Source of the DNA: Squalus acanthias
Taxonomy: Eukaryota
Reading direction: 5' to 3'
Assembly: GCA_030390025.1 (NCBI GenBank)
Contig: CM059432.1
Location: 35,466,001-35,530,000, forward strand
Length of the DNA: 64,000 nt
In this document: positions 246 to 58,575 of the stretch, piece by piece
How positions within the stretch are numbered: the first letter of the stretch is position 1
Layout of the letters: each line of letters starts with the position of its first letter
Translations under genes and position numbers: made by a program
The notes under the pieces: model-generated
The model's input: the letters and a program-made list of their open reading frames with translations, nothing else
What the model was told of the DNA's origin: nothing
Databases searched by the model: none

Positions 246-770
246 AAGCTTCAATAGGCCAAATCTCAAGTTTGACTAGACACATAACATATTCATACAG
301 CTCTCCCTTTCCACACCAAATTGGGTGTTAAAAATAATTTAATATTGATTACCGTTGAAAAAGAGACAGAGTCCAGTTATTTTGATGGTGGGGGATTCGG
401 CAATGGTAATGCCATTGAATGTCAATGGGCGGTGGTTAGACTCTCACTTGTTGGAGATAGTCATTGCCTGGCACTTCTGTGGCGCAAATGTTACCTGCCA
501 CTTATCAGCCCAAGCCTGAATGTCGTCCAGGTCTTGTTGCATGCGGGCATGGACTGCTTCATTATCTGAGGAGTTGTGAATGGCACTGAACACTGTGCAG
601 TCATCAGCGAACATCCTCATTTCTGACCTTAAGTTGGAGGGAAGGCCATTGATGAAGCAGTTGAAGATGGCTGGGCCTAGGACACTGCCCTGAGGAACTC
701 CTGCAGCGATGTCCTGGAGCTGTGATGATTGACCGTCAATCACCACAACCATCTTCCTTTGTGCTAGGTA

Positions 771-1010
771 TAGAAACATAGAAACATAGAAACATAGAAT
801 CTAGGAGCAGGAGTAGGCCATTCAGCCCGTCGAGCCTGTTCCACCATTCAATACGATCATGGCTGATCATCCAAATCCAGTACCCTGTCCCTGCTTTAAT
901 CCCCACAGTACACATATCCCACCCTACCCCCGTAACCCCACGTATTTAATTCCCCCTAACATATCCCATCCTATCCCCATAACCCCACATATTTAATCCC
1001 CCCCTAACAC
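771..1010 (-). mobile_element. CR1 3'-tail insertion with short tandem repeats, nested in LINE A
   Basis: (TAGAAACA)x3 tail plus GGAGTAGGCCATTCAGCCC CR1 terminal motif; interrupts the RT region. Confidence 0.75.
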
Positions 1011-1704
1011 TAATGACTCCAGCCAGTGGAGAGTTTTCCCCCGATTCCCATTGACTTCAGTTTTACCAGGGCTCCTTCATGTCACACGCCGTCAAATGCT
1101 GCCTTGATGTCAAGGGAGTCACTCTCACCTCACCTCTGGAATTCAGCTCCTTTGTCCCTGTTTGGACCAAGGCTGTAATGAGGTCGGGAGCAGAGTGGTC
1201 TTGGCAGAACCTAAACTGGGCATCAGTGAGCAGGTTATTGGTGAGTAAGTGCCGCTTGATAGCACTGTCGATGACACCTTCCATCACTTTGCTGATGATT
1301 GAGAGTAGACTGATGGGGCAGTAATTAGTCGGATTGGATTTGTCCTGCTTTTTTGTGGACAGGACATACCTGGGCAGTTTTCCACATTGTCGGGTAGATG
1401 CCAGTGTTGTAGCTGTACTGGAACAGCTTGGCTAGAGGCGCGGCTAGTTCTGGAACACAAGTCTTCAGAAGGACAGCCGGGATGTTGTCGGGGCCCACAG
1501 CCTTTGCTGTATCCAGTGCGCTCAGCCGTTTCTTGATATCACGTGGAGTGAATCAAATTAGCTGAAGACTGGCTTCTGTGATGATGGGGACCTCAGGAGG
1601 AGGCCGATATGGATCATCCACTTGGTACTTCTGGCTGAAGATGGTTGTAAACGCTTCAGCCTTGTCTTTTGCACTCACGTGCTGGGCTCCATCGTCATTG
1701 AGGA

Positions 1705-2075
1705 ACGGTAGGATAGTGGTAATGTTACTGAACTAGTAATCCAAAGGCCTAGACTAATAATTTGAAGATAAGAGTTCAAATCCCACCATGGCAGGCTGGG
1801 AATTTAAATTCAATTAGCTAAAATAAATCTGGAAGAAAAAGCTAGTGTCAGTAATGGTGACCATGAAACTATTGGATTGTTGTAAAAAGCCATCTGGTTC
1901 AGGAATGTTCTTCAGGGAAGGAAATCTGTTGTTCTTACCTGGTCTGGCCTATATGTGACTCCAGACCCACAGCAATCTGGTTGACTCTTAACTACCCTCT
2001 GAAATGGCCTAGCTGGGCAATAAATGCTGGCCTTGCCAGTGATACCCACATCCTGTGAATGAATAATAAAAAAAA
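1705..2075 (+). mobile_element. tRNA-head SINE made of the LINE A 5' end plus the LINE A 3' tail
   Basis: A-box-like TAGGATAGTGG (1709), B-box GAGTTCAAATCC (1772). 3' end GGGCAATAAATGCTGGCCTTGCCAG...poly(A) matches the LINE A terminus. AGGA on both flanks. Confidence 0.85.
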
Positions 2076-3784
2076 GGATGGTGATATTCATGGAGCCTCT
2101 TCCTCCTGTTAGTTGTTGAATGGTTCACGACTGGATGTGGCAGGACTGCAGAGCTTTGATTTGATTGTGGGATTGCTTAGCCCTGTCTATAGCATGCTGC
2201 TTCTGTTTTTTAGCATGCATGTAGTCCTGTGTTGCAGCTTCCCCAGGTTGGCTCTTCTACACTCCTCATTGAACCAGGGTTGGTCTCCTGGCTTGATGGT
2301 AATGGTAGAGTGAGGGATATGCCGGGCCATGAGGTTACAGATTGTGGTGGAATACAATGCTGCTGCTGCTGCTGATGGCCCACAGCGCCTCATGGATGCC
2401 CAGTTTTGAGCTGCTAGATCTGTTCTGAATCTATCCCATTTAGCACGGTGGTAGTGCCACACAACACGATGGAGGGTGTCCTCAGTGTGAAGACGGGACT
2501 TCGTCTCCACAATGACTGTGCAGTGGTCACTGCTACCAATACTGTCATGGACAGATGCATCTGCGACAGGTAGATTGGTGAGGATGAGGTCAAGTAGGTT
2601 TTTCCCTCATGTTGGTTCTCTCACCACCTGTCGCAGGCCCAGACTGGCAGCTATGTCCTTCAGTACTTGGCCAGCTCGGTCAGTAGTGGTGCTACTGAGC
2701 CACTCTTGGTGATGGACATTGAAGTCCCACACCTAGAGTACATTCTGTGCCCTTGCTACCCTCAGTGCTTCTTCCAAGTGATGTTCAACATGGCGGAGTA
2801 CTGATTCATCAGCTGAGGGAGGGCAGTAGGTGGTAATCAGCAGGAGGTTTCTTTGCCCATGCTTGACCTGAAGCCATGAGACTTCACGGGGTCCGGAGTC
2901 AATGTTGAGGACTCCCAGGGCCACTCCTTCCCGACTGTATACCACTGTGCCGCCACCCCAGGTGGGTCTGTCCTGCCGGTGGGACAGGACATACCCAGGG
3001 ATGGTGATGGAGGAGTTTGCGACATTGGCTGAAAGGTATGATTCTGTGATTATGACTATGTCAGGCTGTTGCCTGACTGGTCTGTGGGACAGTTCTCCCA
3101 ATTTTGACACAAGTCCCCAGATGTTGGTGAGGAGGATTTGCAGGGTTGACTAGGCTAGTTGTGCCGTTGCCGTGTCCGTAGCCGGTGCCGAAGTCGATGC
3201 CGGGTGCTCTGTCCGGTTTCATTCTTATTATTTTGTTTCGTAGCGGTTTGTTACAACTGAGTGACTTGCTAGGCCATTTCAGAGGGCAGTTAAGAGTCAA
3301 CCACATTGCTGTGGGTCTGGAGTCACAGATAGGCCAGACCAGGTAAGGATGGCAGATTTCCTTCCCTAAAGGACATTAGTGAACCAGATGGGTTTTTATG
3401 ACAATCCGATAGTTTCATGGTCACCATTACTGATACTAGCTTTTTATTCCAGATATATTAAATTAACTGAATTTAAATTCCCCAGCTGTCATTAGTCCAG
3501 GCCTCTGGATTACTAGCCCAGTGACATTACCGTTCCCTTAGTCCCACTCTCTTTGGCCTTAACCCTTTTTTTTGGAGAATCATATAATTTACTGGGAAGC
3601 TTCCAACTGGATTATCTGGGTAAAAACACCATACAAATTCGGTCAATATTTATAAAGTACTGATCAGACATCTCAAAGTGCTTCACATACAATGAATGAC
3701 TAAAGTGCAGTGACTGTTGCTATTGTAGTGACTAAAATAAATAATATTATGGACTGGTGACGGTACCAGTGGAAAGACACTTCA

Positions 3785-9894: not shown

Positions 9895-10205
9895 TGTTCT
9901 CTGAATGTGGGTTTCTCACTTTTTGCCTATCTCTTGTTGCCCTGAGTAGATGGTGAGTCTTACTGCTCACTTCAGAGGTCATAGGAGTCAACCACATATA
10001 TTGGAACTAGAGTCAAATGTAGGTTAGACCGGGTTCCCTTCCGTGAAGTATATTAATGAACCAGCTGGATTTTAAGGCAATCCAACAACTTTCATTATTT
10101 TTCTGGGTCCAACCCACGCATACCAGATTTATTGAATTCAGTTTCACAACTGCCATGATGGGATTTGAACTCTCATCCTCCGGGTTGTTAGTCTAGTACC
10201 ACAGC
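9895..10205 (-). mobile_element. Degenerate LINE A head+tail SINE
   Basis: GGGATTTGAACTC B box, GAGTCAACCACAT body and degenerate LINE A tail. Confidence 0.65.
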
Positions 10206-13738: not shown

Positions 13739-16700
13739 AGAATAATAATAAGAAATAAACCAGACGGACCACCTGGCATTGACCTCTGCACCTGCTACGG
13801 ACACGGCAACGGCACACCCAGCCCAGTCAACCCTGCAAAGTCCTCCTCACCAACATCTGAGAACTTGTGCCAAAATTGGAGAGCTGTCCCACAGACTAGT
13901 CATGCAACAGCCTGGCATAGTTATACTCACAGAATCATACCTTTCAGCCAATGTCCCAGAAGGGTCATTGACTTGAAACGTTAACTCTGTTTCTCTAATC
14001 ACAGATGCTGCCTGACCTGCTGAGTATTTCCAGCATTTTCTGTTTTTATTCCTCCATCACCATCCCTGGGTATGTCCTGTCCCACCGGCAGGACAGACCC
14101 ACCAGGGGTGGCGGCACAGTGGTATACAGTCGTGAAGGAGTGGCCTGGGAGTCCTCAACATTGACTCCGGACCCCATGACGTCTCATGGCTTCAGGTCAA
14201 GCATGGGCAAGGAAACCTCCTGCTGATTACCACCTACTGCCCTCCCTCAGCTGATGCATCAGTACTCCGCCATGTTGAACACCACTTGGAAGAAGCACTG
14301 AGAGTAGCAAGGGCACAGAATATACTCTGGGTGAGGGACTTCAATGTCCATCACCAAGAGTGGCTCGGTAGCGACACTACTGACCGAGCTGGCCGAGTCC
14401 TGAAGGACATAACTGCCAGTCTGGGCCTGCGACAGGTGGTGAGAGGACCAACACCAACAAGGAAAAATCTACTTGACCTCGTCCGCACCAATCTACCTGT
14501 CGCAGATGCATCTGTCCATGGCAGCATTGGCAGCAGTGACCACCGCACAGTCATTGTGGAGACGAAGTCCCATCTTCACACTGAGGACACCCTCCATCGT
14601 GTGGTGTGGCACTACCACCGTGCTAAATGGGATAGATTCAGAACAGATCTAGCAGCTCAAAACTGGGCATCCATGAGGCGCTGTGGGCCATCAGCAGCAG
14701 CAGAATTGTATTCCACCACAATCTGTAACCTCATGGCCCGGCATATCCCTCACTCTACCATTACCATCAAGCCAGGGGATCAACCCTGGTTCAATAAGGA
14801 GTGTAGAAGAGCATGCCAGGAGCAGCACCAGGCGTACCTAAAAATGAGGTGCCAACCTGGGGAGGCTGCAACACAGGACTACATGCATGCTAAAAAGCGG
14901 AAGCAGCATGCTATAGACAGGGCTAAGCGATCCCACAATCAACAGATCAGATCAAAGCTCTGCAGTCCTGCCACATCCAGTCGTGAATGGTGGTGGACCA
15001 TTAAACAACTAACGGGAGGAGGAGGCTCCAAGAATATCCCCATCCTCAATGATGGGGGAGCCCAGCACGTAAGTGCAAAAGACAAGGCTGAAGCGTTTGC
15101 AACCATCTTCAGCCAGAAGTGCCGAGTGGATGATCCATATCAGCCTCCTCCTGAGGTCCCCACCATCACAGAAGCCAGTCTTCAGCCAATTCGATTCACT
15201 CCACATGATATCAAGAAACGGCTCAGCGCACTGGATACAGCAAAGGCTATGGGCCCCGACAACATCCCGGCTGTCCTGCTGAAGACTTGTGCTCCAGAAG
15301 TAGCTGTGACTCTAGCCAAGCTGTTCCAGTACAGCTACAACACTGGCATCTATCCGACAATGTGGAGAACTGCCCAGGTTTGTCCTGTCCACAAAAAACA
15401 GGACAAATCCAATCCGGCCAATTTCCGCCCCATCAGTCTACTCTCAATCGTCAGCAAAGTGATGGAAGGTGTCATCAACAGTGCTATCAAGCGGCACTTA
15501 CTCACCAATAACCTGCTCACTGATGCCCAGTTTGGGTTCCGCCAAGACCATTCGGCTCCCGACCTCATTACAGCCTTGGTCCAAACATGGACAAAGGAGC
15601 TGATTTCCAGAGGTGAGGTGAGAGAGACTGCCCTTGACATCAAGGCAGCATTTGACGGAGTGTGGCATCAAGGAGCGCTAGTAAAATTGAAGTCAATGGG
15701 AATCAGGGGGGAAACTCTCCACTGGCTGGAGTCATACCTAGCACAAAGTAGATGGTTGTGGTGATTGGAGGTCAATCATCACAGCCCCAGGACATCGCTG
15801 CAGGAGTTCCTCAGGGCAGTGTCCTAGGCCCAACCATCTTCAGCTGCTTCATCAATGACCTTCCCTCCAACATAAATTCAAAAATGGGGATGTTCGCTGA
15901 TGACTGCACAGTGTTCAGTGCCATTCACAACTCCTCAGATAATGAAGCAGTCCATGCCCGCATGCAACAAGACCTGGATGACTTTCAGGCTTGGACTGAT
16001 AAGTGGCAGGTAACATTCGCGCCACAGAAGTGCCAGGCAATGACTATCTCCAACAAGCGAGAGTCTAACCACTGCCCTTTGACATTCAATGGCATTACCA
16101 TCGCCGAATCCCCCACCATCAACATCCTGGGGGTCACCATTGACCAGAAACTTAACTGGACCAGCCACATAAATACTGTGGCAACAAGAGCAGGTCAGAG
16201 GCTAGGTATTCTGCGGCGAGTGTCTCTCCTTCTGACTCCCCAAAACCTTTCCAACATCTACAAGGCACAAGTAAGGAGTGTGATGGAATACTCTCCACTT
16301 GCCTGGATGAGTACAGCTCCAACAACACACAAGAAGCTCGACACCATCCAGGACAAAGCAGCCCGCTTGATTGGCACCCCATCCACCACCTTAAACATTC
16401 ACTCCCTCCACCACCGGCGTACCATGGCTGCAGTGTGTACCATCTACAAGATGCACTGCAGCAACTCGCCAAGGCTTCTTTGGCAGCACCTCCCAAACCC
16501 GCGACCTCTTCCACCTAGAAGGACAAGGGCAGCAGGCGCATGGGAACACCACCACCTCCAAGTGCCCCTCCAAGTCACACACCATCCTGACTTAGAAGTA
16601 TATCGCCGATCCTTCATCATCGCTGGTCAAAATCCTGGAACTCCCTACCTAACAGCACTGTGGGAGTACCTTCACCACACGGACTGCAGCGGTCCCAGAA

Positions 16701-16770
16701 GGCGGCTCACCACCACCTTCTCCAGGGCAATTAGGGATGGGCAATAAATGCTGGCCTTGCCAGCGACGCC
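13739..16770 (+). mobile_element. LINE family A, near-complete APE-RT ORF (pseudogenised)
   Basis: 492-aa ORF 14286-15764 and 331-aa ORF 15752-16747 joined by one frameshift. APE motifs (ILTESYL, DFNVHH, SDH) and RT motifs (FRPISLL, QFGFR, GVPQGSVLGP, FADD). Confidence 0.95.
13961..14049 (+). mobile_element. Penelope-type terminal fragment inserted in LINE A
   Basis: Matches the terminus of the element at 37178-37280 (GAAACGTTAACTCTGTTTCTCT...CTGCTGAGTATTTCCAGC). Absent from the other LINE A copies. Confidence 0.8.
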
Positions 16771-16960
16771 CATTCCACCAGCCTGTCTATGTCCTCTTGA
16801 AGTCTATCACTATCCTCCTCACTGTTCACTATACTTCCAAGTTTAGTGTCATCTGCAAATTTTGAAATTGTGCCCTGTACACCCACATCCAAGATATTAA
16901 TATATATCAAGAAAAGCAGTGGTTCTAGAACCGACCCCTGGGGAACACCCCTGTATACCT
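16771..16960 (-). mobile_element. CR1 RT fragment (5' continuation of 12935-13738)
   Basis: ORF 16731-16970 GVPQGSVLEP...SKFADDTKLG. Confidence 0.85.
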
Positions 16961-21355: not shown

Positions 21356-21365
21356 TCTTTTGAGA

Positions 21366-21506
21366 AGACAGAAAATGCTGGAAATACTCAGCAGGTCAGG
21401 CAGCATCCATGGAGAGAGAAACAGAGTTCACATCTCGGGTCGAGATGCTGCCTGACCTGCTGAGTATTTCCAGCATGTTATGCTTTTATTTCAGATTTTC
21501 AGCATC
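21366..21506. mobile_element. Inverted pair of Penelope-type termini (hairpin)
   Basis: Perfect 33-bp inverted repeat, 21375-21407 and 21444-21476. Confidence 0.8.
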
Positions 21507-24500: not shown

Positions 24501-24579
24501 CGACATACGCCCTAGACAGTGAGTGCCAGCAGGCTATTCGGCCATTGAAGCCCTCAGTTTTGGTTCTGCCAGGACCACT

Positions 24580-26007
24580 TGGCTCCAGATCCCATTACAG
24601 CCTTGGTCCAAACATGGACAAAAGAGCTGAATTCCAGAGGTGAGGTGAGAATGACTGCCCTTGACATCAAGGCTGCATTTGACCGAGTGTGGCATCAAGG
24701 AGCCCTAGTAAAATTGAAGTCAGTGGGAATCAGCGATGCCCACATCCCAGGAACGAATAAAAAAAAAAAGCTCACCAGTCAGCCTTGACGCAGTGGTAGC
24801 ACTCTCTCCCCTGAGCCAGAAGGATCAAGCCCTACACTAGAGACTTGAGCACATAATCTAGGCTGATGCCAGGCCAGATATCCCTGCTCTTCTTCAAATA
24901 GTGGGAATCAGGGGAAAACTCTCCACTGGCTGGAGTCATACCTAGCACAAAGAAATATAGTTATAGTTGTTGGAGGCCAATCATCCCAGCCCCAGGACAT
25001 CGCTGCAGGAGTTGCTCAGGGCAGTGTCCTCGGCCCAACCATCTTCAGCTGCTTCATCAATGACCTTCCCTCCATCATAAGGTCAGAAGCGTGGATATAC
25101 GCTGATGATTGCACAGTGTTCAGTTCCATTCGCAACTCCTCAGATAATGAGGCAGTCCATGCCCGCATGCAGCAAGACCTGGACAACATTCAGGCTTGGG
25201 CTGATGTGTGGCAAATAACATTCACGCCTCACAAGTGACAGGCAATGACCATTTCCAACAAGAGAGAGTTTAGTCACTTCCCCTTGACATTAAACGGGAT
25301 TACTATCACTGAATCCCCCCACCATCAACATCCTGGGGGGTCACCATTGACCAGAAACTTAACTGGACCAACTACATAAATACTGTGGCTACAAGAGCAG
25401 GTCAGAAGCTGGGTATTCCGCAGCGAGTGATTCACCTCCTGACTCCCCAAAGCCTTTCCACCATCTACAAGACACAAGTCAGGGGTGTGATGGAATACTC
25501 TCCACTTGCCTGGATGAGTGCAGCTCCAACAACACTCAAGAAGCTCGACACCATCCAGGACAAAGCAGCCTGCTTGATTGGCACCTCATCCACCACCTTA
25601 AACATTCATTCCCTCCACCATCGGCGCACCGTGGCTGCAGTGTATACCATCTACAAGATGCACTGCAGCAACTCGCCAAGGCTTCTTCGGCAGCACCTCC
25701 CAAACCCGTGACCTTTACCACCGAGAAGGACAAGGGCAGCAGTTGCATGGGAACACCACCACCTCCAAGTTCCCCTTCAAGTCACACACCATCCTGACTT
25801 GGAAGTATATCGCCGTTCCTTCATTGTCGGTGGGTCAAAATCCTGTAACTATCTCCCTAACAGCACTGTGGGAGTACCTTCACCTCACAGACTGCAGTGA
25901 TTCAAGAAGGCGGTTCAATACCACCTTCTCAAGGGCAACTAGGGATGGGCAGTAAATGCTAGCTTTGTCAGCAATGCCCAATCCCATGAGTGAATTAAAA
26001 AAAAAAA
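24580..26007 (+). mobile_element. LINE family A, 5'-truncated RT and 3' tail with poly(A); interrupted at about 24732-24900
   Basis: Collinear with 15550-16770 and ends in GAATTAAAAAAAAAAA. The interruption holds a short LINE A tail and a Deu-SINE piece, with AGTGGGAATCAG duplicated around it. Confidence 0.92.
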
Positions 26008-29734: not shown

Positions 29735-30525
29735 TCACTGTGCAGTGGTCACTCCTACCAATGCTGTGATGGACAGATGCATCTGTGACAGGTAAATTGG
29801 TGAGGATGAGGTCAAGTAGGTTTTTCCCACCACCTGCCGCAAGCCCAGTCTGGTAGCTATGTCCTTCAGAGCTCGGCCAGTAGTGGTGCTACCGAGCCAC
29901 TTTTAGTGATGGACCCCCACCCAGAGTATATTCTAAGAACATAAGAAATAAGAGGAGTAGGCCATATGGCCCCTCGAGCCTGCTCCGCCATTCAATAAGG
30001 TCATGGCTAATCATCGATCTCAACTCCACTTTCCCGCCCGATCTCCATATCCCTTGATTCTGTGTCTTTGCTACCCTCAGTGGCTTCTTACAAGTGGTGT
30101 TCAACATGGAGGAGTACTGATTCATCAACTGAGGGAGGGCAGTAAGTGGTAATCAGCAGGAGGTTTCCTTGCCCATGTTTGACCTGATGCCATGAGACTT
30201 CATTGGGTCCGGAGTCAATATTAAGGACTCGCAGGGCCACTCCCTCCTGACTGCATACTACTGTGCCGTCACCTCTAGTGGGTCTATCCTGCTGGTGGGA
30301 CAGGACATACCCATAGATGGTGATGGGGAAGTCTAGGACGATGGTTGAAAGGTATGATTCTGTGAACATGACTGTCATGCTGTTGCTTGATTAGTCTGTG
30401 GGACAGCTCTCCCAATTTTGGCACAAGTCCCCAGATGTTAATGAGCAGGACTGTGCAGGGTGGACTGGGCTGGGTGTGCCTTTATCGTGTCCGAATCTGA
30501 TGCCTAGGTCGATGCTGAGTGGTCT
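29735..30525 (-). mobile_element. LINE family A APE-region fragment with nested CR1 tail (29935-30056)
   Basis: ORF 30088-30378 (TESYL...QDRPTRG). The CR1 tail is flanked by an ATTCT duplication. Confidence 0.88.
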
Positions 30526-36360: not shown

Positions 36361-37177
36361 TTATTATTAAGGCTGCTATATAAATAAGTTGTTAAAGTAC
36401 TTGGATGTGCACTTGGGATGCTCTAACCTGCAGGGCTACGGACCAAGAGCTGGGAAGTGGGATTAGGCTGGATAGCTCTTTGTTGGCCGGTGCGGACACG
36501 ATGGGCCGAAATGGCCTCCTTCCGTGCTGTAACTTTCTGTGATTCTATGAGAAGAGTTACCATCAACAGATAGCAAATGGACAGCAAAAGACATGTGCTA
36601 TCAATGTAATTTGTACACTGGTTCAAACCCTGCTGCCTGTGACTATGACTCATTGCTATCCTTGTGTGTTGTGCTCATATTTTTGTTTGAGTGACCTGCA
36701 GTAGTAGTATTATCTCTGACGGGGTTGTGAAGATTCCATGCATTAATGAACAAATGTGCAAAATGCAGAGTGGTGAATGACTCTGCCCTAGGTTTGCTGG
36801 TATGGTGATAACCAGTATTGGCATTGATAACCATCTCATAGAGATATTATCACAACACAGAAAAGGTTGTTTTCGTACTTGTTTTCAGTCCAAACCGCCC
36901 TGTTGCTTTCTTGTATTATAACTGAACCTCGCTTGCTTCTCCCAAGTTGCAGTAAGCCTCTGACACACTCTCTTCCTCCACTCTGCATCGTCACTGTGTT
37001 GAAATTGAGCCTTGTCACATTGTCTCGCGCTCTAACTGTTCTTTCCTCCAATCCGTGGGACTCCTTTCCTTCATAGGTATTCCCTTCGCCATGCGATCTT
37101 CAGCTCTTTAATACAATTTTAAGATAATACAAATTTTAAGATAATTGGCAAGAGAACCAGGGGTGAGATAAAGAGAA

Positions 37178-38442
37178 ACAACAACAGAAAACGCTGGAAA
37201 AACTCAGCAGGCCAGGCAACATCCATGGAGAGAGAAACAGAGTTAACGTTTCAGGTTGAAACCCTTCGTCAGAACTGAGAAAAAAGCAGGAAATGAAACA
37301 GATAAAAAAGCAAGGGGGAGGCTGGGGGGAGGAATAAAAGAACAAAAGAGGAGGTCTGTGATAAGTAGAGACATTAAGAGATGCTCAAGGCGAGACGAGA
37401 TGGTAATAGGACAGGTTAAGAAACAAAAGGTGGCTCAGAAGTGTAAAGTGTGAAATGCTGGCAGAATGAGAGACAGCTGCTGTGGGGGGAGAGAGAGAAA
37501 AAAAAAGGAAAAGGCACAAACCAAAAGGGTGGATAAAATGTATGTGGTAGGGGCCGAGGTTATGATCTGAAATTGTTGAACTTGATATTGAGTCCGGAAG
37601 GCTGTAAAGTGCCTAATCGAAAGATGATGTGCTGTTCCTCGAGCTTACGCTGAGCTTCCGTGGAACAATGCACGAGGCCGAGGACGGTGAGGTCTGAGTG
37701 GGCGTGGAGAGGTGAATTAAAATGACAAGTGACCGGAAGCTCAGGGTCACCCTTACGGACTGAACGGAGGTGTTCTGCAAAGCGGTCACCCAGTCTGCGT
37801 TTGGTCTCCCCAATGTAGAGGAGACCACATCGTGAGCAGCGAATACAGTATACTAGATTGCAAGAAGTACAAGTAAATTGCTGTTTCACCTGGAAGGGGT
37901 GTTTGGGGCCCTGGAGAGTGGGAAGGGGGAATGTATAAGGGCAGGTGTTGCATCTTCTGCACTTGCACGGGAAGGTGCCGGGCGAGGGGGAAGGGGTGCT
38001 GGGGGTGATAGAGGAGTGGACTAGGGTGTCTCGGAGGGAGGGGTCCCTGCGGAATGCTGAAAGGGGAGGTGAGGGGAAGATGCGTTTGGTGGTGGGATCA
38101 CGTTGGAGGTGGCGGAAATGGCGGAGGATAATCCGTTGAATGTGGAGGCTGGTGGGGTGAAAGGTGAGGACAAGGGGAACTCTATCGTGGTTCCGGGAGG
38201 GAGGGGCTGGGGTGAGGGCAGAAGTGCGGGAGATAGAACGGACACGGTCGAGGGCCGTGTCGACCACGGTAGAGGGGAATCCTCGGTTGAGGAAAAAGGA
38301 AGACATGTCGGAAGCACTGGTATGGAAGGTGGCATCGTCGGACAGATGCGGCGGAGACGGAGAAACTGGGAGAAGGGAATAGAGTCCTTACAGGAGGCGG
38401 GGTGGGAGGAAGTGTAGTCCAGGTAGCTGTGGGAGTCAGTGG
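37178..38442 (-). mobile_element. Penelope-like element, 5'-truncated, GIY-YIG endonuclease region intact
   Basis: ORF 37560-38306 with NLVYCIRCSRCGLLYIGETKRRLGDRFAEH and GTLQPSGLN. Inserted in a CR1 tail (37130-37177 / 38443-38680) with TSD GATAA(A/G)GAGAA. Confidence 0.93.
37241..37276 (-). ncRNA. Minimal type I hammerhead ribozyme motif
   Basis: Minus strand: AGUU-CUGACGA-AGG(GUUUCAA)CCU-GAAA-CG-UU-AACU, i.e. stem I, core, stem II, GAAA and palindromic ACGU stem III. Confidence 0.75.
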
Positions 38443-39164
38443 GATAAGGAGAATTTTTTTTACGCAGTGAGCTGTTATGATCTGGAATGCACTGCCTGAA
38501 AGGATGGTGGGAGCAGATTCAGTAGTAACTTTGGAAAGGGAATTGGCTGTATACTTCAAAAGGAAAGAATTGCAGGATTATGGGAAAAGAGCAGGGGAGT
38601 GCAACTAATTGGATAGCTCGTTCAAAGAAATGGCACAGTCACGATGGGCTGAATGGCCTCCTCTGTGCTGTAACCCTGCTATCAGCTGATGACTACTTGC
38701 TACTTTACCTTTATCAAGTCTTTTTGTCTCTGCAACTTTACTTTGTCCTGCACTATCTGCATTAGGTTATCAATTTGGTTTCTCAATTCGAAGATACTGT
38801 AATGGAAGCTCCTGTTATTCCAAGTCAAATGACAACTGCAGCTCCCTTGCTGGGCTCAGTGAATGAATGCACTACCTGCTAGGGTATTGTGCCAAAAGAC
38901 CAGAAAGGTCCTGAGTTCAATACCTGGTCTGCACTGTAAGAAACTGCATGGTCCAGGGTATAATGCAACCTAGGGTAATGGCTGTCAGTGAAGGTCCCAA
39001 GTGAGATGGCTTTGAGACAATAGCTGCCCATTTTCCCAGTGGAATGAAGTCCACTTTGGTGAATTCTAACCTCACTCAGAGGTACCTGAGAGTGGCTGTT
39101 GTTGTGGAAATATAAAGGTTGAAGATTCCATCCTCAACTCTTCTCCTAAGGTTGAGGTGAAATG

Positions 39165-42228: not shown

Positions 42229-44621
42229 TCTTAAAATGCATTCATGAGAATTTTTTTAGCCAGTACGTAGCAAGCCCAACAAGCGAGGGGGCGGTTCTGG
42301 ACCTAGTTTTAGGGAATGAAGCTAGGCAAGTGGAAAAGGAATCAGTGGGAGAGCATATTGGTGGTAGTGATCATAATTCAGTTAGATTTAAGGTAGTTAT
42401 GGAAAAGGACAAGGATAGACCAGGGATAAAAGTTCTCAATTGGGAAAAAGCTAGTTTTACTAAGCTAAGATGTGATTTAGCCAAAGTGGACTGGAGACAG
42501 AAACTTTTCAAGTCAGTGTTAGAGCAGTGGGATGCATTCAAGGAGGAGATAGTGAGGGTTCAGAGCAAGTGCGTTTTCCTTAAAGAAAAAGGGTAGGACT
42601 CACAAATCTAGAGCTCCCTGGATGTCAAGGGGCATACAGGATAGGATAAAGAAAAAAAGGGAAGCTTATGACAGATACTGAGGGCTCAATACTGCAGAAA
42701 CCCTAGAGGAGTATAGAAAATGCAGGGGTGAAATTAAAAAGGAAATTAGGAAAGCAAAGAGAGGGCATGAAAAAATATTGGCATGTAACATGAAGGAAAA
42801 TCCAAAGATGTTTTATAAATACATTAAGAGCAAGAGGATAACTAAAGTAAGAGATGGGCCTATTAGGGACTATAAAGGTAACCTGTGTGGGGAAGCGGGA
42901 CTATAAAGGTAACCTGTGTGTGGAGGTGGAAGACATGGGTATGGTTCTTAATGAATACTTTGTGTCTGTTTTCACAAAAGAGAGGGACGATGCAGACATT
43001 GCAATTAGGGAGGAGGAGTGTGAAATATTAGATGAAATAAACATAGTGAAACAGGAAGTATTAAGGGGTTTAGCATCTTTGAAAATGGATAAATCCCCAG
43101 GCCCGGATGAAATGTATCCCAGACTATTAAGAGAAGTAAGAGGAAATAGCAGAGGCTCTGACCATCATTTTCCAATCCTCTCTGGCTACAGGTGTGGTAC
43201 TGGAGGACTGCTAACATGGTATCATTGTTTAAAAAGGAAGAAAGGGATAAACCGAGTAATTACAGGCCAGTCAGCCTAACCTCGGTGGTGGGAAAATTAT
43301 TGGGAAAAATTCTGAGGGACAGGATAAATCTTCATTTAGAAAGACACGGATTAATCAGGGACAGTCAGCATGGATTTGTTAAGGGAAGGTCGATGGGATT
43401 TTCGATGAGGGTAGTGCGTTTGATGTAGTCTGTATGGATTTTAGCAAGGCTTTGATAAGGTCCCGCATGGCAGACTGGTCATGAAAGTAAAAGCCCATGG
43501 GATCCAAGGCAAAGTGGCAAGTTGGATCCAAAATTGGCTCAGAGGCAGGAAACAAAGGGTAATGGTCGAAGGGTGTATTTGTGACTGGAAGGCTGTTTCC
43601 AGTGGGGTTCCGCAGGACTCAGTACTGGGTCCTTTGCTTTATGTGGTACATATCAATGATTTGGACTTGAATGTAGGAAGTATGATTAAGAAGTTTACAG
43701 ATGATAGAAAAATTGGCTGTGTGGTTGATAATGAAGAAGAAAGCTGTAGACTGCAGGAAGATATCAATGGACTGGTCAGGTGGGCAGAACAGTGGCAAAT
43801 GGAATTCAATCTGGAGAAGTGTGAGGTAATGCATTTGGGGAGGGCTAACAAGGCAAGGGAATACACTATAAATGGTAGGCACTGAGAAGTGCAGAGGATC
43901 AGATGGATCTTGTAGTGCATGTTCACAGATCCCTGAAGGTAGCAGGACAGGTAGATAAGGTGGTTAAGAAGGCATACGGGATACTTGCCTTTATTAGCCG
44001 AGGCATAGAATATAAGAGCAGTGAGGTTATGCTTGAACTATATAAAACATTAGTTAGGCCGCAGCTAGAATACTGCGTGCAGTTCTGATCACCACATTAC
44101 AGGAAGGATGTGATTGCACTAGAGGGGGTGCAGAGGAGATTTATGAGGATGTTGATTGGGCTGGGGAATTTTAACTATGAGGAAAGATTGGATAGGTTGG
44201 GGTTGCTTTCTTTGAATCAGAGGAGGCTGAGGGGAGACCTAATTGAGGTGTATAAAATTATGAGGGGCCTAGATAGAGTGGATAGGAAGGACCTATTTCC
44301 CTTAGTAGAAGGGTCAATAACCAGGGGGCATAGATTTAAAGTAATTGGTCGGAGGTTTAGAGGGGATTTGAGGAGAAATCTTTTCACCCAGAGGGTGGTG
44401 GCGGTCTGGAACTCACTGCCTGAAAGGGTGGTAGAGGCAGAAACCCTCATCACATTTAAGAAGTACTTGGATGTGCACTTGAAGTGCCGTAACCTACAAG
44501 GCTACGGACCAAGTGCTGGAAAATGGGATTAGGGTGGATAGCTCTTTGTCGGCCAGCACGGACAAGATGGGCCGAATGGCCTCCTGCTGTGCTGTAAATT
44601 TCTATGATTCTAAGATTCTAT
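42229..44621 (+). mobile_element. CR1 LINE, late APE through RT and tail, nested in L2
   Basis: LDLVL...SDHN, YRPVSLT, QHGF and ORF 44110-44532; TTCTATGATTCTAAGATTCTAT tail. Confidence 0.93.
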
Positions 44622-46994: not shown

Positions 46995-47290
46995 AAAAAA
47001 AAAAATGTATATATTCTTGGCATGTGGGTGTTGCTGGTAAGGCTGACATTTATTGCCCATCCCTAGTTTCCCTTGAGAAAGTGGTGGTGGGTATTCTTGA
47101 ACCGCTGCAGTCTGTGCGGTGAACGTGCTCTCTCAATGGTGTCAGGTAGGGAGTTCCAGAATTTTGACCCAGTGACTATGAAGTCAGGATGGTGTGTGAC
47201 TTGTAGGGGAACTTTGAGGTGATGGTGTTCCCATTATATTGCTGCTCTTGTCCTTCTTGGTGATGGAGGTCACGGGGCTGGGAGTTACTG
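46995..47290 (-). mobile_element. LINE family A 3' fragment
   Basis: Reverse complement of 25700-25990. Confidence 0.8.
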
Positions 47291-48035
47291 TCAAAGTAAC
47301 CTTGATGAGTGTCCAGATGAAAACAAATGAAATTACATTTTTTAAATATCTTTGTTCTCTGGATGTAGGCAGTATGGGCAAGGCTGCATTTATTTCTCAT
47401 CCCTAGTTGCCCTGAGGGTATTATGAGTCAACCTTGTAGTGTAGTTGCTGCAATGCATCCTACAGATCATGCTTGCATGCTGCAGGCACAGTGCTGGGAA
47501 TAGTGGCAAGGCCACCGATTGAGCAGAATTGGCTAATCTCAACCGAGGTGGCGATTGAGATGCTACAACTCGCCTCAGCGCCCCAGGGCTATGGAGGGCA
47601 GAATCGGGCTTGGCTACGATGCTCCCCAAGGCAGAATACTCTGCTGACAGTCCCCTGCCTAGCTCACACATGAAGAATCTGTCACTGGCTTCAGAAAGAG
47701 AAGAAAAAAAATTGGCTTTTAAAAAGAAAACACTGAGAGAATGGAAGAAAGGGCACAAAAAGATTTACCACACCCTTCATATAAAGAGCTTGTTGACTCA
47801 ATGCGACAGAGTTTAGCAAAGAGAGCGAGAGAGGAAGCGTGTCGTTGGCTCGTCTGTGTGACTTGCCACTTCCTGGCCTGTCTGACGATCTGTATGGGGT
47901 TTAGTGTATCATGGAGTCCCGCTCTGTAGGGAGCCTGTCGAGAGCACACAGCCCAACCGGCCATCACTCATCACTGTTATCAAACAGTGCTCTTCACACA
48001 AACTCCTCGGGAGAACCGCTGCAGACGGGCCGATA

Positions 48036-48559: not shown

Positions 48560-48945
48560 TAAAAATTTCATTCTTTGGATGAAAGCGTCGCTGGAAAGGC
48601 TGGCATCTATTGCCCAACCCTAGTTCCTCTGAGAAGCTGGCTCTCTTTTAGGAACTGATTTTGTGGTTTGCCACTTCAGAGGTCAGTTAAGAGTCATCTA
48701 GGCCAGACCAGGAGGTTTCACTCCCTAAAGGACATTAGTGAACCAGTTGGGTTTTTACGACAAGCCGACAGCTTCATGGTCACTTTCACTGATACCGGCT
48801 TTTTAGTTCCAGATTTTTTAAATCTCAGAATTTGAATTTGAGAATTCAAATTCTCAGACTGCCATGGTGGGATTTGAATTCACCTTATCTGGATTATTAA
48901 TTCAAGATGCTGAATTACTAGTCCAGTGACAGCCACTACACTACT
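48560..48945 (-). mobile_element. LINE A head+tail SINE
   Basis: Head (TACTAGTCCAGTGAC, GGTGGGATTTGAA), body (CCTAAAGGACATTAGTGAACCAG) and tail (ATTGCCCAACCCTAGTT). Confidence 0.8.
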
Positions 48946-49437
48946 GTACCACTCTGCCCTTCTCTGAATGATGCCACAGGATCTTTAACAGCGACCTGAA
49001 CAGGCAGATGGCACCTTGGTTTAACATCTCATCTGAAAGACAGCATCTCCAACAATGCAGCGCCCTCTCAGTACTGCACTCAAGTATGGGACGCAAGCAT
49101 GCAATCTTCCGACCCAGAGCTAAGAGTGCTACCAACTGAGCCAAGGTGGCAAGCGTTTAAATGAATGAAGGTAGTGAACTTTGCTTCTGTGGCGCTATCC
49201 ACACCAATGGTCCCTGTAATTATTTTTGGCACCACGCGGCCGCTTTAAGGGACTGTGTGGGCCATTCAAGATACCGCACATGCGCGGTTTTTGCATTGAA
49301 AAGCTGCAGGCTGGCTGTGCGGGTTCCCTGGAGCGCCGTGCAGCTTAAAGAGAACATTGATCCACACCCCAACTTTTCCAAAGAACAACACAGGGCTGCT
49401 TCTTGTTGGCATCTAGTGAGCACAAAAGAAAGACCAG

Positions 49438-50457: not shown

Positions 50458-52639
50458 TGAAGGGCACTGGTAAAGCGCAAAGGGGGAATTACAATAGATT
50501 GTGAGTCTCCATTTGAGCCCTTGACTGCCAGAGCCTTGGCATCAACATAAAATGATTTGTAAAGCCCTGTGTGTTCAGCACCACCCTGGTGCTGTTGAAG
50601 TAGGTCAAAATACAACCATTTTTATTTTTTACAAATCAATTCATCACGTAGCGTATCATCACAAGGCTTTTTTAATATTTATAGTTTGAAACCCCAGCCT
50701 TCTGGTACTTCACAAAAGTGACCATTGTTCACGTTCATGTGAGACTCCAACCTGTGAATGATGATGGAATATCACCAGTTTGACCCTGACTTCCACACAC
50801 ATATATCCTCTAGATTATTAGTTCAGGCCTCTGGATTACTAGTCCAGTAACATATCCACTACACAACCACATCCAAATACATGTGCTTTCCAATAGGAGT
50901 CACTTGAGTAACGATAAGGAACAGGAACACTGTCTGATTTTTTTTTTATAACTCCTTCCAACCTATTGATGCTGAGGGCAATATGTCATGCACCAACCTC
51001 TGTGCCAATGAGACTAATTAACTGAGCACAGACCAGGGAGTGAAGCCTTTCTGCTCTGTGTGGTGCATGTCCCCATTGAACCATTGGGGCAGCTCTGATT
51101 CTTTTTTTTTCGAGTGCCATTTTATCCTGGCTATCACACTCGCTAATTTTCTTGCCAAGCGAGACTCACTGCGTCCGCAGTTGACGTGAGGCCATTTCCA
51201 AATGACCTGCGGAACCATTTGCTCCATTTGCTAGAATCTGTGAGAAAATGGAAATCTTGTGTCTGTAATAGTTTTTTTTAACTCAAACCAATTTCTCCAA
51301 AAAGTATTATGTAGATGAGCATTCATCTGAGAATGGGGTAAACAAAGAAACTTTTTAATTTTGGGCGCATTGTCTTATGGAGATCTACTGAAACCGTTTT
51401 TATTTCCCAACGGGCCAGTCTCCAGATCCAGCTGCCAGTTACACTCTGCCCCAGTGAGGCTTCGCTCGCCGTGGTGTACTAGACCTCCAATTTACGGCAA
51501 GCTACTGAATTCACAGTGTTCTCTGCATAAGCCGCCATTTACTTATAATTCTACAAAAATCAAACTCTACACCACTGCTCCATTTTCTCCCTTCCTCTCG
51601 CTCAGGTGCTAACTGATGCATAGCGGTCACAACACAGAAACAGGCCATTCGGCCCAACCAGCATGCACCCTCCACGTGAACAAATAATGCTAATCACATT
51701 TGCTTCCCACTGTTCACATAACCCTTCATTCCCTTTTCCTCCATCCATCTATCCAATGTAATTCACTGAAAATGACTTTAAAAATCTATATGAATATTGA
51801 TCTAGTTTCTGCCTCAACCACCAACCCTAGAAGTGAATTCCACAGCCTCACAACTCTCTCTATGTGAAGAAGTTTCTCTTGCCCTCTGTAAATCTCTTAC
51901 ATTTAATCTTGTATTTATGACCCCTCGTTATAAGCCCCTAAACTATTGGAAACATTCTGATTCTATCTACCATGTCCCATCCATTCATAATTTTAAACAC
52001 TTCGATCATATCGCCCCGTAAACTGCATTGTTCTAATTTTTTATAAAAGAAACAATTTTTCAAATCTGGGGTATGGTTCCACAGATTGGGTGGCCCTCTC
52101 TTCACCCAAGTGTCCATTCTTCACATTTCAAAGCATCAGCAGGCTATTTGACTTTAGAGGGCATCATAGCTGACCCTGATCCATCCTTATTTCTATACAA
52201 GTGTACTTTCTAGAATGAAATGGAATAGGGAATCTGCCCGATTTTGTTTTCCTCCCTCCCTCCCAGAAATCACTGAGGCCAGTTGCAGCACCTAAAGTTG
52301 TTCTGCCGGAGATCAGTTACCTTGGCACAGATCGAGGATTGAACTGTTGACCTTCACCTGTCAGAGCGGGTCACCAACGCACTAGATGTTGCAGTTACCC
52401 ACCGAACCACAAGGGAAGCCATCAATCTTCTTTTCTCCAATAGAAACAACTTAAGTTGTGTTGAGTCTCTCCTCACTCCAAGCCCTTAGTCTGGGGATCG
52501 CAGTCTTCAGTCTTCTCTGAACCTGCTCCAATGTTGCAGTGACAGGAAAAATCAGGGGAGGGGCAAGGGGAAACTGTTTTGAATCTCTGTAAAATGTGCG
52601 GAAGATCTCCGATACACAAGTAACATGTAATCTAACTCT

Positions 52640-55548: not shown

Positions 55549-55710
55549 CCAAGGTGGTGGTGGGCCTTCCCCTTGAATGACTGCAGTTCGTGTGATATTC
55601 TTTGTAGCAGTTTGATGCAACTGAGTGGCTTGCTAGGCCACTTCAGAGGGCAGTTAAGAGTCAACCACGTTGGTGTGAGACGGGAATCACATATAGGCCA
55701 GACTGGGTAA
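55549..55710 (-). mobile_element. Fragment of a LINE A head+tail derivative with a different junction
   Basis: Matches 3240-3340, then jumps to the LINE A 3' region (cf. 16676-16718). Confidence 0.75.
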
Positions 55711-56779: not shown

Positions 56780-58575
56780 GGCATTGGAGAAGGTGCAAAA
56801 AAGATTCACAAGGATACCAGAACTGAGAGGATATACTTAACAGGAAAGGCTGAACAGGCTGAGGGGTGACCTGATGGAGGTCTTTAAAATTCTGAAAGGG
56901 ATTGATAGGGTAGACGTAGAGAAAATATTTCCACTTGTGAGCGAATCCAAAACTAGAGGTCATAAATGTATGATTGTCACTAATAAACCCAATAGGGAAT
57001 TCAGGAGAAACTTCTTTACTCAAAATGTGCTACCAGATGGAGTAGTTGAGACGAATAGCATGGATGCATTTAAGGGGAGGCTGGATAAGCACATGAGGGA
57101 GAAAGGAATAGAAGGTTGTGAAGATAGGATTAGAGGGTTAAAATGAAGTTCGGGACCTAGAACGTCAGGACCCTCATGGACAACCCCAACAGCGACAGAC
57201 CGGAACGCCGTACTGCTTTGGTTGCCCGGGAGCTCAGACGTTTCGACATAGACATCGCCGCCCTAAGCGAGACCCGGCGGGTAGGTGAAGGGGCCAGCTC
57301 AAGGAGCAAGGCGGTGGTTACACCTTCTTCTGGAAAGGTAAACCTGAAGAAGAACGGCGCCTCCAGAGACTGCCCTTGTGGAATAAATGAACGCCTCATG
57401 ACTCTACGGCTCACCCTAGCCCTGAACCGGTGCGCTACGGTCATCAGTGCGTACGCCCCAACACTGGAAGCCACAGATGAGACCAAAGAAGAATTCTACT
57501 CCAACCTCGAACAATCCCTGTCCCGAGTCCCAACGGGCAACAAGCTGATCCTCCTTGGCGACTTCAGCGCCAGAGTTGGAAAGGACACAGACCTCTGGGG
57601 AGGTGTGATCGGCAGAGAGGGGGTAGGGAAAGCCAACTGCAACGGTACCCTCCTCCTGATGAAATGCTTAGAACATGGCCTTGTCATAACCAACACCTTG
57701 TTCCATCAGAGAGACAAGTACAAGGCTTCATGGCAACACCCTCGCTCCAAGCACTGGCATCTGCCGGATTACGTCATCGTCCGAGCGAGGGTCCGCAAGG
57801 ACATCTGCATCACCCGCGCCATGACAGGAGCTGACGACTGCTGGACAGACCACCGCCTAATCCGCTCTGTCATCTCCATCAACGTAGCCCCAAAACAGCG
57901 GCGGCAACAGAAGCAATGCCGCAGGAAAATCAACGCTGGAGCTCTCAAAGGCCCTGCTAAGAAAGCCCTGTTCAGCCTGCGCCTCACAAACAACCTGACG
58001 ACTCCCAGTGATTCAGAGACACAGAGTGTCCACAGTGCCTGATCTGCGCTCAAGGCCTCCATAATCAGCACCTGTGAAGAGACGCTCGGTCACCCGACCA
58101 GGAAACACCAAGACTGGTTCGACGAGAGCGACCAGGAGATCCAGGAGCTAATAAGCCGCAAGCGCAAGGCATTCCTGATCTGGAAACAGCAACAGAACTC
58201 GAGAGCAAGAAAGCAGCTCTACAGACGCCTGAAGGCTGAGGTCCAACAAAAAACTCGCGACCTAAAGAACAGATGGTGGGTGGAGAAAGCGCAGGAGATC
58301 CAGCAGCTAGCCAACAACCACGACGTGCGTGGATTCTTTAGCGCAGTCAAGACCATCTACGGCCCAAGCACCCATGGTCCTACCCCACTGTGGGCCAAGA
58401 ACGGAGAGATACTCATCAAGGACAGAGGCAGTCAGTGCCGGCTGGAAGGAGCACTTCGAAGAACTGCCTAAGAAAAAGAAGAGATGAAGAGGGTTGAAAG
58501 GAGGCTCGTGTGGAGTATAAATGCCAGCATAGACCAGCTGGGCCGAATGGCCTGTTTGTGTGCTGTAGAACGTGA
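56780..58575 (+). mobile_element. CR1 3' fragment split by the RTE insertion
   Basis: EVFKILKG...RRNFFTQ (56874-57146); tail GGAGGCTCGTGTGGAG...GGGCCGAATGGCCTGTT resumes near 58488. Confidence 0.82.
57143..58487 (+). mobile_element. RTE-clade LINE: endonuclease and linker joined to 3' tail, RT absent
   Basis: MKFGT*NVRTLMDNP...DIAALSETR, ISAYAPT, LLGDF, SWQHPRSKHWH, TDHRL. Ends in ACTGCCTAAGAAAAAGAAGA. Confidence 0.9.

Follow-up and report, generated by a model that had tools for sequence, protein, structure and literature searches.

A family of coding LINEs in Squalus acanthias that begins with a tRNA-like head is depleted of T clusters along its open reading frame, and the depletion is specific both to this family and to the sense strand. 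The anatomy of the element and the coding selection acting in its source lineages can be read directly from the copies. As to transcription, the sequence leads us to favor, with somewhat better than even confidence, the view that source elements would be transcribed by Pol III and that their sense strand has been purged of terminator-like T tracts.

Copies in the window and the family they represent

The window, that is, the whole 64,000-nt stretch analysed here, holds copies of the family, a short derivative, and elements that served as controls:

13744..16776, + strand: copy A, tRNA-headed CR1-Zenon LINE; dead, 5'-truncated, starting at about family position 348
13961..14049, + strand: foreign insert in copy A, 89 bp, carrying copy A's sole T4/T5
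14136..15764, + strand: copy A ORF piece that covers APE endonuclease (PF14529) plus the first half of RT (PF00078)
15752..16747, + strand: copy A ORF piece past the frameshift, second half of RT and C-terminus
16743..16748, + strand: AATAAA in the copy A 3' tail, a tail common to short derivatives
379..3537, − strand: copy B, head and body, broken by inserts
1702..2071, + strand: SINE-like derivative inserted within copy B, formed by internal deletion, its head fused to the LINE tail
24543..25997, + strand: copy C, an interrupted 3' part with one private T4 close to the 5' edge
29737..30525, − strand: copy D, 5' body fragment, older subfamily
47015..47310, − strand: worn 3' fragment of the same LINE family
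42229..44621, + strand: control, canonical CR1 copy, 12 sense T4+ runs
57161..58471, + strand: control, RTE fragment, T-poor, T clusters not depleted

Copy A has neither head nor A tail, and short deletions have removed the A-box and B-box segments from the head of copy B (3491-3537, −); within the window the boxes are kept only by the short copy at 1702-2071, with an A-box-like site at 1709-1719 and a B box at 1772-1783. The 89-bp insert, present in 0 of 39 genomic copies, matches window positions 37173-37256, adjoining a GIY-YIG frame, and is likely a Penelope-like fragment. A Penelope-like element with a GIY-YIG frame lies at 37173-38518 (−), and related short fragments at 13961-14049 and 21365-21490. 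The worn fragment at 47015-47310 was considered as an older sister family and rejected as such, all 20 loci fetched belonging to the same family. Older head pieces of 65%–85% identity, some beside tail pieces, occur at 48670-48950, 55587-55710, 9917-10196, and 50808-50868, and probably derive from earlier SINE or LINE generations. The RTE family (L073-L089; window 57161-58471) has a 5' region consisting of a short GC-rich repeat array of variable number, and a normal AUG ahead of its endonuclease.

A 181-nt probe spanning the head-body junction returned 2,052 candidates in the S. acanthias genome. Thirty-nine genomic copies diverge by a mean of 3.1% from their column majority, a sequence of 3,320 nt (19.5% T) with one 973-codon stop-to-stop frame containing APE and RT domains and with no ORF1; family copies carry a poly-A tail. 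Variants common to at least six copies are mostly synonymous (39 synonymous to 25 non-synonymous), whereas private variants are not (397 to 1,104), which indicates that the source elements were translated. With an ORF under purifying selection and a length of 3.3 kb, the family differs from SINEs, which are short and non-coding. In a quick RT tree of 66 rows, none of them a named Zenon protein, the shark LINE falls in a 28-row group (support 91) together with environmental proteins and two from Lepidoptera, and shark and bird CR1 fall elsewhere; the shark L2 forms a long branch. Its RT identity to vertebrate CR1 is 33%–35%, and its separate clade places it outside canonical vertebrate CR1.

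Judged by its sequence the family is an elasmobranch CR1-Zenon LINE, named from the match of its 5' end to SquAca_Zenon-1 (Stuart et al. 2026, PMC13343379) rather than from the RT tree. That match covers the first 400 nt of the consensus, over which the family majority and the published sequence show about three differences by eye. The two descriptions agree in the lack of ORF1, the single APE-RT ORF, the poly-A tail, and length (3,314 versus about 3,310 nt). According to the same source, Zenon elements that lack ORF1 and end in a poly-A tail occur in sharks, rays, coelacanth, and hagfish. A query with P0001, a distant protein, brought up only the same shark family in the 30 loci examined; viral contigs gave no relatives, and 15 full-length copies showed no convincing target-site duplications. 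LINE contigs of eukaryote type turned up in many prokaryotic genome bins (L290-L369), probably through host contamination.

T runs and T clusters on the sense strand

A sequence-only reading of copy A (13739-16770, +; 20.2% T) had noticed that sense runs of four or more Ts were confined to the foreign insert while A4+ runs were frequent. Both observations hold: a T4 at 14036 and a T5 at 14043 lie in the insert, and 11 A4+ runs were counted. Once the inserts are taken out, no sense T4 remains in copies A (2,944 nt), B (2,539 nt, −), or D (666 nt, −), as had been claimed; copy C likewise has none within 24580-26007, the interval then considered, and its private T4 falls just outside, in 24543-24579. 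The abundance of such runs reported for the ordinary CR1 copy at 42229-44621 is also borne out by its 12. Carried over to the family consensus, a check proposed at the time, the count is again 0: the 39-copy majority has no T4 and seven T3, against 46 A3+, 38 G3+, and 52 C3+. Internal T4s in individual copies are private (30 runs in 177 kb aligned from 79 sources, with at most four copies per site), and 20 of 30 further copies, two of these loci repeating earlier ones, have none.

How surprising a count of zero is depends on the null. The earlier estimate of 4–5 expected runs is near that of a base shuffle (3.9 expected, P = 0.015) and two to three times above the 1.1–1.8 expected from codon-aware or dinucleotide nulls (P = 0.13–0.30). 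Synonymous permutation gives 1.66 expected (P = 0.15), and the remaining nulls give P = 0.17 for third-base redraw, 0.13 for codon order, 0.23 for dinucleotides, and 0.28 for CpG-aware permutation. Because shuffles yield zero in 13%–30% of cases, and because the low-T headless relative L346 (17% T) has no T4 either, the missing TTTT does not by itself provide the independent support for the head that had been drawn from it, and we rejected the T4 count alone as proof. The accompanying worry that headless relatives might be equally depleted applies to this one relative of 132. The RTE majority has just one T4+ run. Nor is T4 an absolute stop, since tRNA-Lys genes of S. acanthias contain internal T4 yet end at T4 or T5. 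The tRNA-Lys(TTT) genes (L400-L429) are arranged in tandem, repeating every ~1.8 kb.

Human Pol III is described as recognizing T3VT, TVT3, and T2VT2 as partial terminators, isolated T3 being nearly inactive (PMC3141230); our first counts of these motifs preceded the use of that source. Windows with four Ts in five nucleotides, which take in canonical and interrupted terminators, occur once in the ORF against 4.7–5.8 expected (P = 0.008–0.030), and windows with four Ts in six, a width picked post hoc among ten window statistics, occur six times against 14–16 expected (P ≤ 0.007). Four nulls in all were used for these windows, among them synonymous, junction-class, and dinucleotide nulls. Five-in-six and five-in-seven windows show no significant depletion and are too rare to test. 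Matching A windows (four in five and four in six) are at expectation. Within the ORF, T3 is found five times against 11.5 expected (P = 0.004) and TT 74 times against 89.5; one T2CT2 remains in the family majority. On the other side of the balance, 14 of 56 copies carry a T2CT2.

Other elements of the same genome behave differently. For majorities built from 17 RTE, 25 L2, and 25 CR1 copies, the corresponding window counts are 9 against 6.4–8.5 expected, 23 against 20–21, and 26 against 25–26, respectively; RTE, with 16.7% T, is poorer in T than the shark Zenon and still at expectation. A fit on the T content of 132 headless relatives, with which RTE, L2, and CR1 agree, predicts 11.4 four-in-five and 22.9 four-in-six windows (P < 0.001), as an extrapolation, given that just five of the 132 lie below 22% T. 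The sister lineages of P0001-P0003 enter the comparison at protein level. These relatives are 160 loci less 28 that contain N or lack a 450-aa open frame, and many of them stem from a small number of hosts and lack independence; two of the 132 reach P ≤ 0.03 on four-in-five windows and none does so on both window measures.

The avoidance of T extends to the protein. Phenylalanine makes up 1.9% of the shark Zenon protein, below all 65 of 65 homologues (minimum 2.2%, median 4.3%); its codons are TTT and TTC in the ratio 3:15, and the pairs FF, FL, FY, FC, and FW are absent. Could all of this have been inherited, in a lineage that had little T, TT, and Phe even before acquiring the head, so that the polymerase is irrelevant? 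Several observations fit: the nulls often give zero T4; the low-T relatives L346, L366, and L292 have T4 counts of 0, 1, and 1; the nearest homologues are already lowish in Phe (2.3%–3.4%); and TA is as depleted as TT (observed/expected 0.67 versus 0.71; T before T versus T before A, P = 0.33), so that a general bias may lie behind some of the TT loss. Those same three relatives, however, have 8, 6, and 8 four-in-five windows, at their own expectation, against one here, and the signal persists when dinucleotides are kept. We consider an inherited or compositional origin unlikely. Base composition, which the sequence-only reading had itself offered as an alternative, can thus account for the absence of T4 under the nulls and is an unlikely source of the shortfall in four-in-five and four-in-six windows; correspondingly, the proposed selection for Pol III read-through finds no footing in T4 alone and gains it from the broader window statistic, with use of that polymerase suggested by sequence features. 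Subfamily substitutions gave no signal on terminator avoidance and had no power: the 85 shared variants created no new T4 and two new four-in-five windows, where private rates predict ~0.5 and 1.7, weak sites thus arising at a neutral rate.

tRNA-like head and translation start

Full-length copies share a single starting base; the A box lies at +9 and the B box at about +73, both being conserved across copies; the general A- and B-box consensus was used to find them. Half of the loci with head sequence (39/78) start within the first 10 nt (88 were examined, many of them picked by the head junction), and 20 of 30 protein-selected copies extend into the head. The flanks of 18 truncated copies have no alternative 5' end in common, except for one 42-bp match. 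The junction between head and body is in one register in 39 of 39 copies, and contigs from three other organisms span it. Aligned with a tRNA-Cys gene of S. acanthias the head scores 50.8 against a maximum of 44.4 in 300 shuffles, its A box lying at a similar offset, and it beats all 300 shuffles for three of seven distinct S. acanthias tRNA sequences; ARAGORN and Rfam do not call it. The spacing of its boxes (~53 nt) exceeds the 30–40 bp given in PMC7279448. The element has an A box close to the 5' end and a B box downstream of it, as in a type-2 Pol III unit, and the family majority lacks an internal terminator (0 T4, one T2CT2). In the supplement of PMC13343379, all seven shark and ray Zenon consensi begin, by eye, with an A/B-box head and are T4-free over the 400 nt given, the boxes being kept while the spacer changes; two hagfish Zenons and one from coelacanth are by eye headless and show T4+ within the 400 characters at the start, part of which may be flank.

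The endonuclease begins at residue 39 and the first in-frame Met is residue 287, so no in-frame AUG lies ahead of the endonuclease. Because eight AUGs stand upstream in the head and none shares the ORF's frame ahead of the endonuclease, translation cannot, on this sequence, be explained by ordinary scanning to an AUG in frame; entry into the ORF would need a −1 shift from an out-of-frame AUG at family position 359 (copy B, window 3211-3213, −) or a non-AUG start. By eye, AUG 359 is present in six of the seven published shark and ray Zenon consensi, and in the ray consensus, whose visible 400 nt reach the ORF, it stands in the same frame relation, a −1 shift being needed there too. It is lost in 15 of 61 S. 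acanthias copies, which form an older subfamily. The pre-ORF region shows no unusual fold (z = 0.03), a crude descriptor run with no positive control found no HDV-like ribozyme, and no 2A-like motif was seen by eye in the N-terminal frames of the shark Zenon. Ahead of the endonuclease, 12 of 120 homologues (P0005, P0020, P0028, and others) and 25 of 73 related loci (L123-L187) have a 2A-like NPGP motif. R2, a non-LTR element that likewise has a single ORF, probably makes uncapped RNA translated from a non-AUG start; it differs in that its RNA is co-transcribed by Pol I and cleaved by an HDV-like ribozyme, and in that its endonuclease is restriction-like.

A Pol II transcript, with its promoter in or near the head, might avoid U-rich tracts for reasons that act on the RNA: splice acceptors, premature polyadenylation, decay, or immune sensing, for example. 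A coding RNA of 3.3 kb that carries AATAAA and ends in an A tail is what Pol II ordinarily makes, low TA beside low TT would fit, and the poly-A tail is general to Zenons as described in PMC13343379. The same pressures should fall on RTE, L2, and CR1 in this genome, which show no depletion; the retention of A and B boxes from sharks to rays despite spacer change, and the eight upstream AUGs, also speak against it. We put this explanation on the same footing as inherited composition, as improbable.

Under Pol III transcription of the source elements, which we prefer, TFIIIC would bind the head boxes, and Pol III would start at the first base of the head and read 3.3 kb end to end, variants with terminator-like T tracts being selected against. 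The uncapped RNA would be translated from a non-canonical start and copied by target-primed reverse transcription from the A tail, and internal deletions of the same RNA would give rise to the SINE-like short copies.

Short derivatives, related elements, and wider meaning

Of 30 head-selected loci, 16 extend from head to body, and the other 14 (L370 counted among them) are short copies made of head plus tail, with varied breakpoints in which positions 308-339 are joined to 3205-3256. Such diversity of deletion breakpoints (1702-2071; L371-L399) suggests repeated birth from the LINE. That the boxes are instead kept for the SINE-like derivatives, with long copies gaining the head by repeated recombination and Pol III read-through past or minor, would suit the share of short copies and the exchange of SINE modules documented in PMC5499810, but we think it the least probable of the alternatives, as the junction register is identical throughout and bridged in other organisms' contigs, the varied breakpoints are those expected of LINE derivation, and T avoidance along the ORF is left unexplained.

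A T run of variable length (1 to about 10) precedes the A tail, ~45 nt past AATAAA (tails L031-L069 and L090-L109), and is longer where the A tail is shorter (rho −0.50). Its excess over background, as might be expected of an encoded terminator, depends on the comparison: P = 0.002 against A5+ runs and P = 0.06–0.11 against A7+ runs, with T≥3 in 16 of 40 tails versus 23 of 98 background A7+ runs (P = 0.06) and a single T the commonest state. Given the inverse relation to A length, the run is possibly the result of later slippage.

By description, the short derivatives resemble SacSINE1 in having head, body, and LINE tail; identity with SacSINE1 and the "Deu" label are presumptive. The Deu-SINEs SacSINE1 and LmeSINE1 are described with a tRNA-like head with A and B boxes, a Deu domain, and a LINE tail; SacSINE1 is non-coding and 463 bp long, and its partner is given as L2-2_CM (PMC5499810, PMC2746220). 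Lepidopteran Zenon and its derivative Persaeus share with the shark family the poly-A tail and internally deleted short forms, and Persaeus carries the 5' end of Zenon; unlike the shark head, it is stated to be without tRNA homology and without a Pol III promoter (PMC6740152). The T+ SINEs B2, Dip, and Ves, as presented in PMC8466645, also have a Pol III head, AATAAA, a variable T run that grows as the A tail shortens, and a short A tail. They are non-coding, and the shark Zenon's terminal T run does not rise clearly over background.

The family itself has been described before; its head, its avoidance of T, and the problem of where translation starts appear to be new within the literature searched. 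The main text of PMC13343379 contains no occurrence of "tRNA", "polymerase III", "promoter", or "start codon", and that text makes no mention of the head, the depletion of T clusters, or the lack of an in-frame AUG; the open-access literature searched gave no account of any of the three. A fuller reading of the sequence, whose truth we regard as evenly balanced, is that an autonomous coding LINE of sharks and rays captured a SINE Pol III promoter before the two groups split, was purged of T clusters over 3.3 kb down to its use of phenylalanine, would make a 935-aa enzyme from uncapped RNA without an in-frame AUG, and would be both partner and parent of tRNA-headed shark SINEs.

LINEs are commonly taken as Pol II transcripts and SINEs as Pol III transcripts (PMC5786205). 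If Pol III does make a natural coding RNA of 3.3 kb, this line between the polymerases would blur; a constraint of transcription would be written into the choice of codons and amino acids, and a cap-independent start would be needed, potentially useful for expression from Pol III. As conserved SINE bodies are described as having no match to LINE sequence so far (PMC5786205), the shark Zenon bears on their origin as well.
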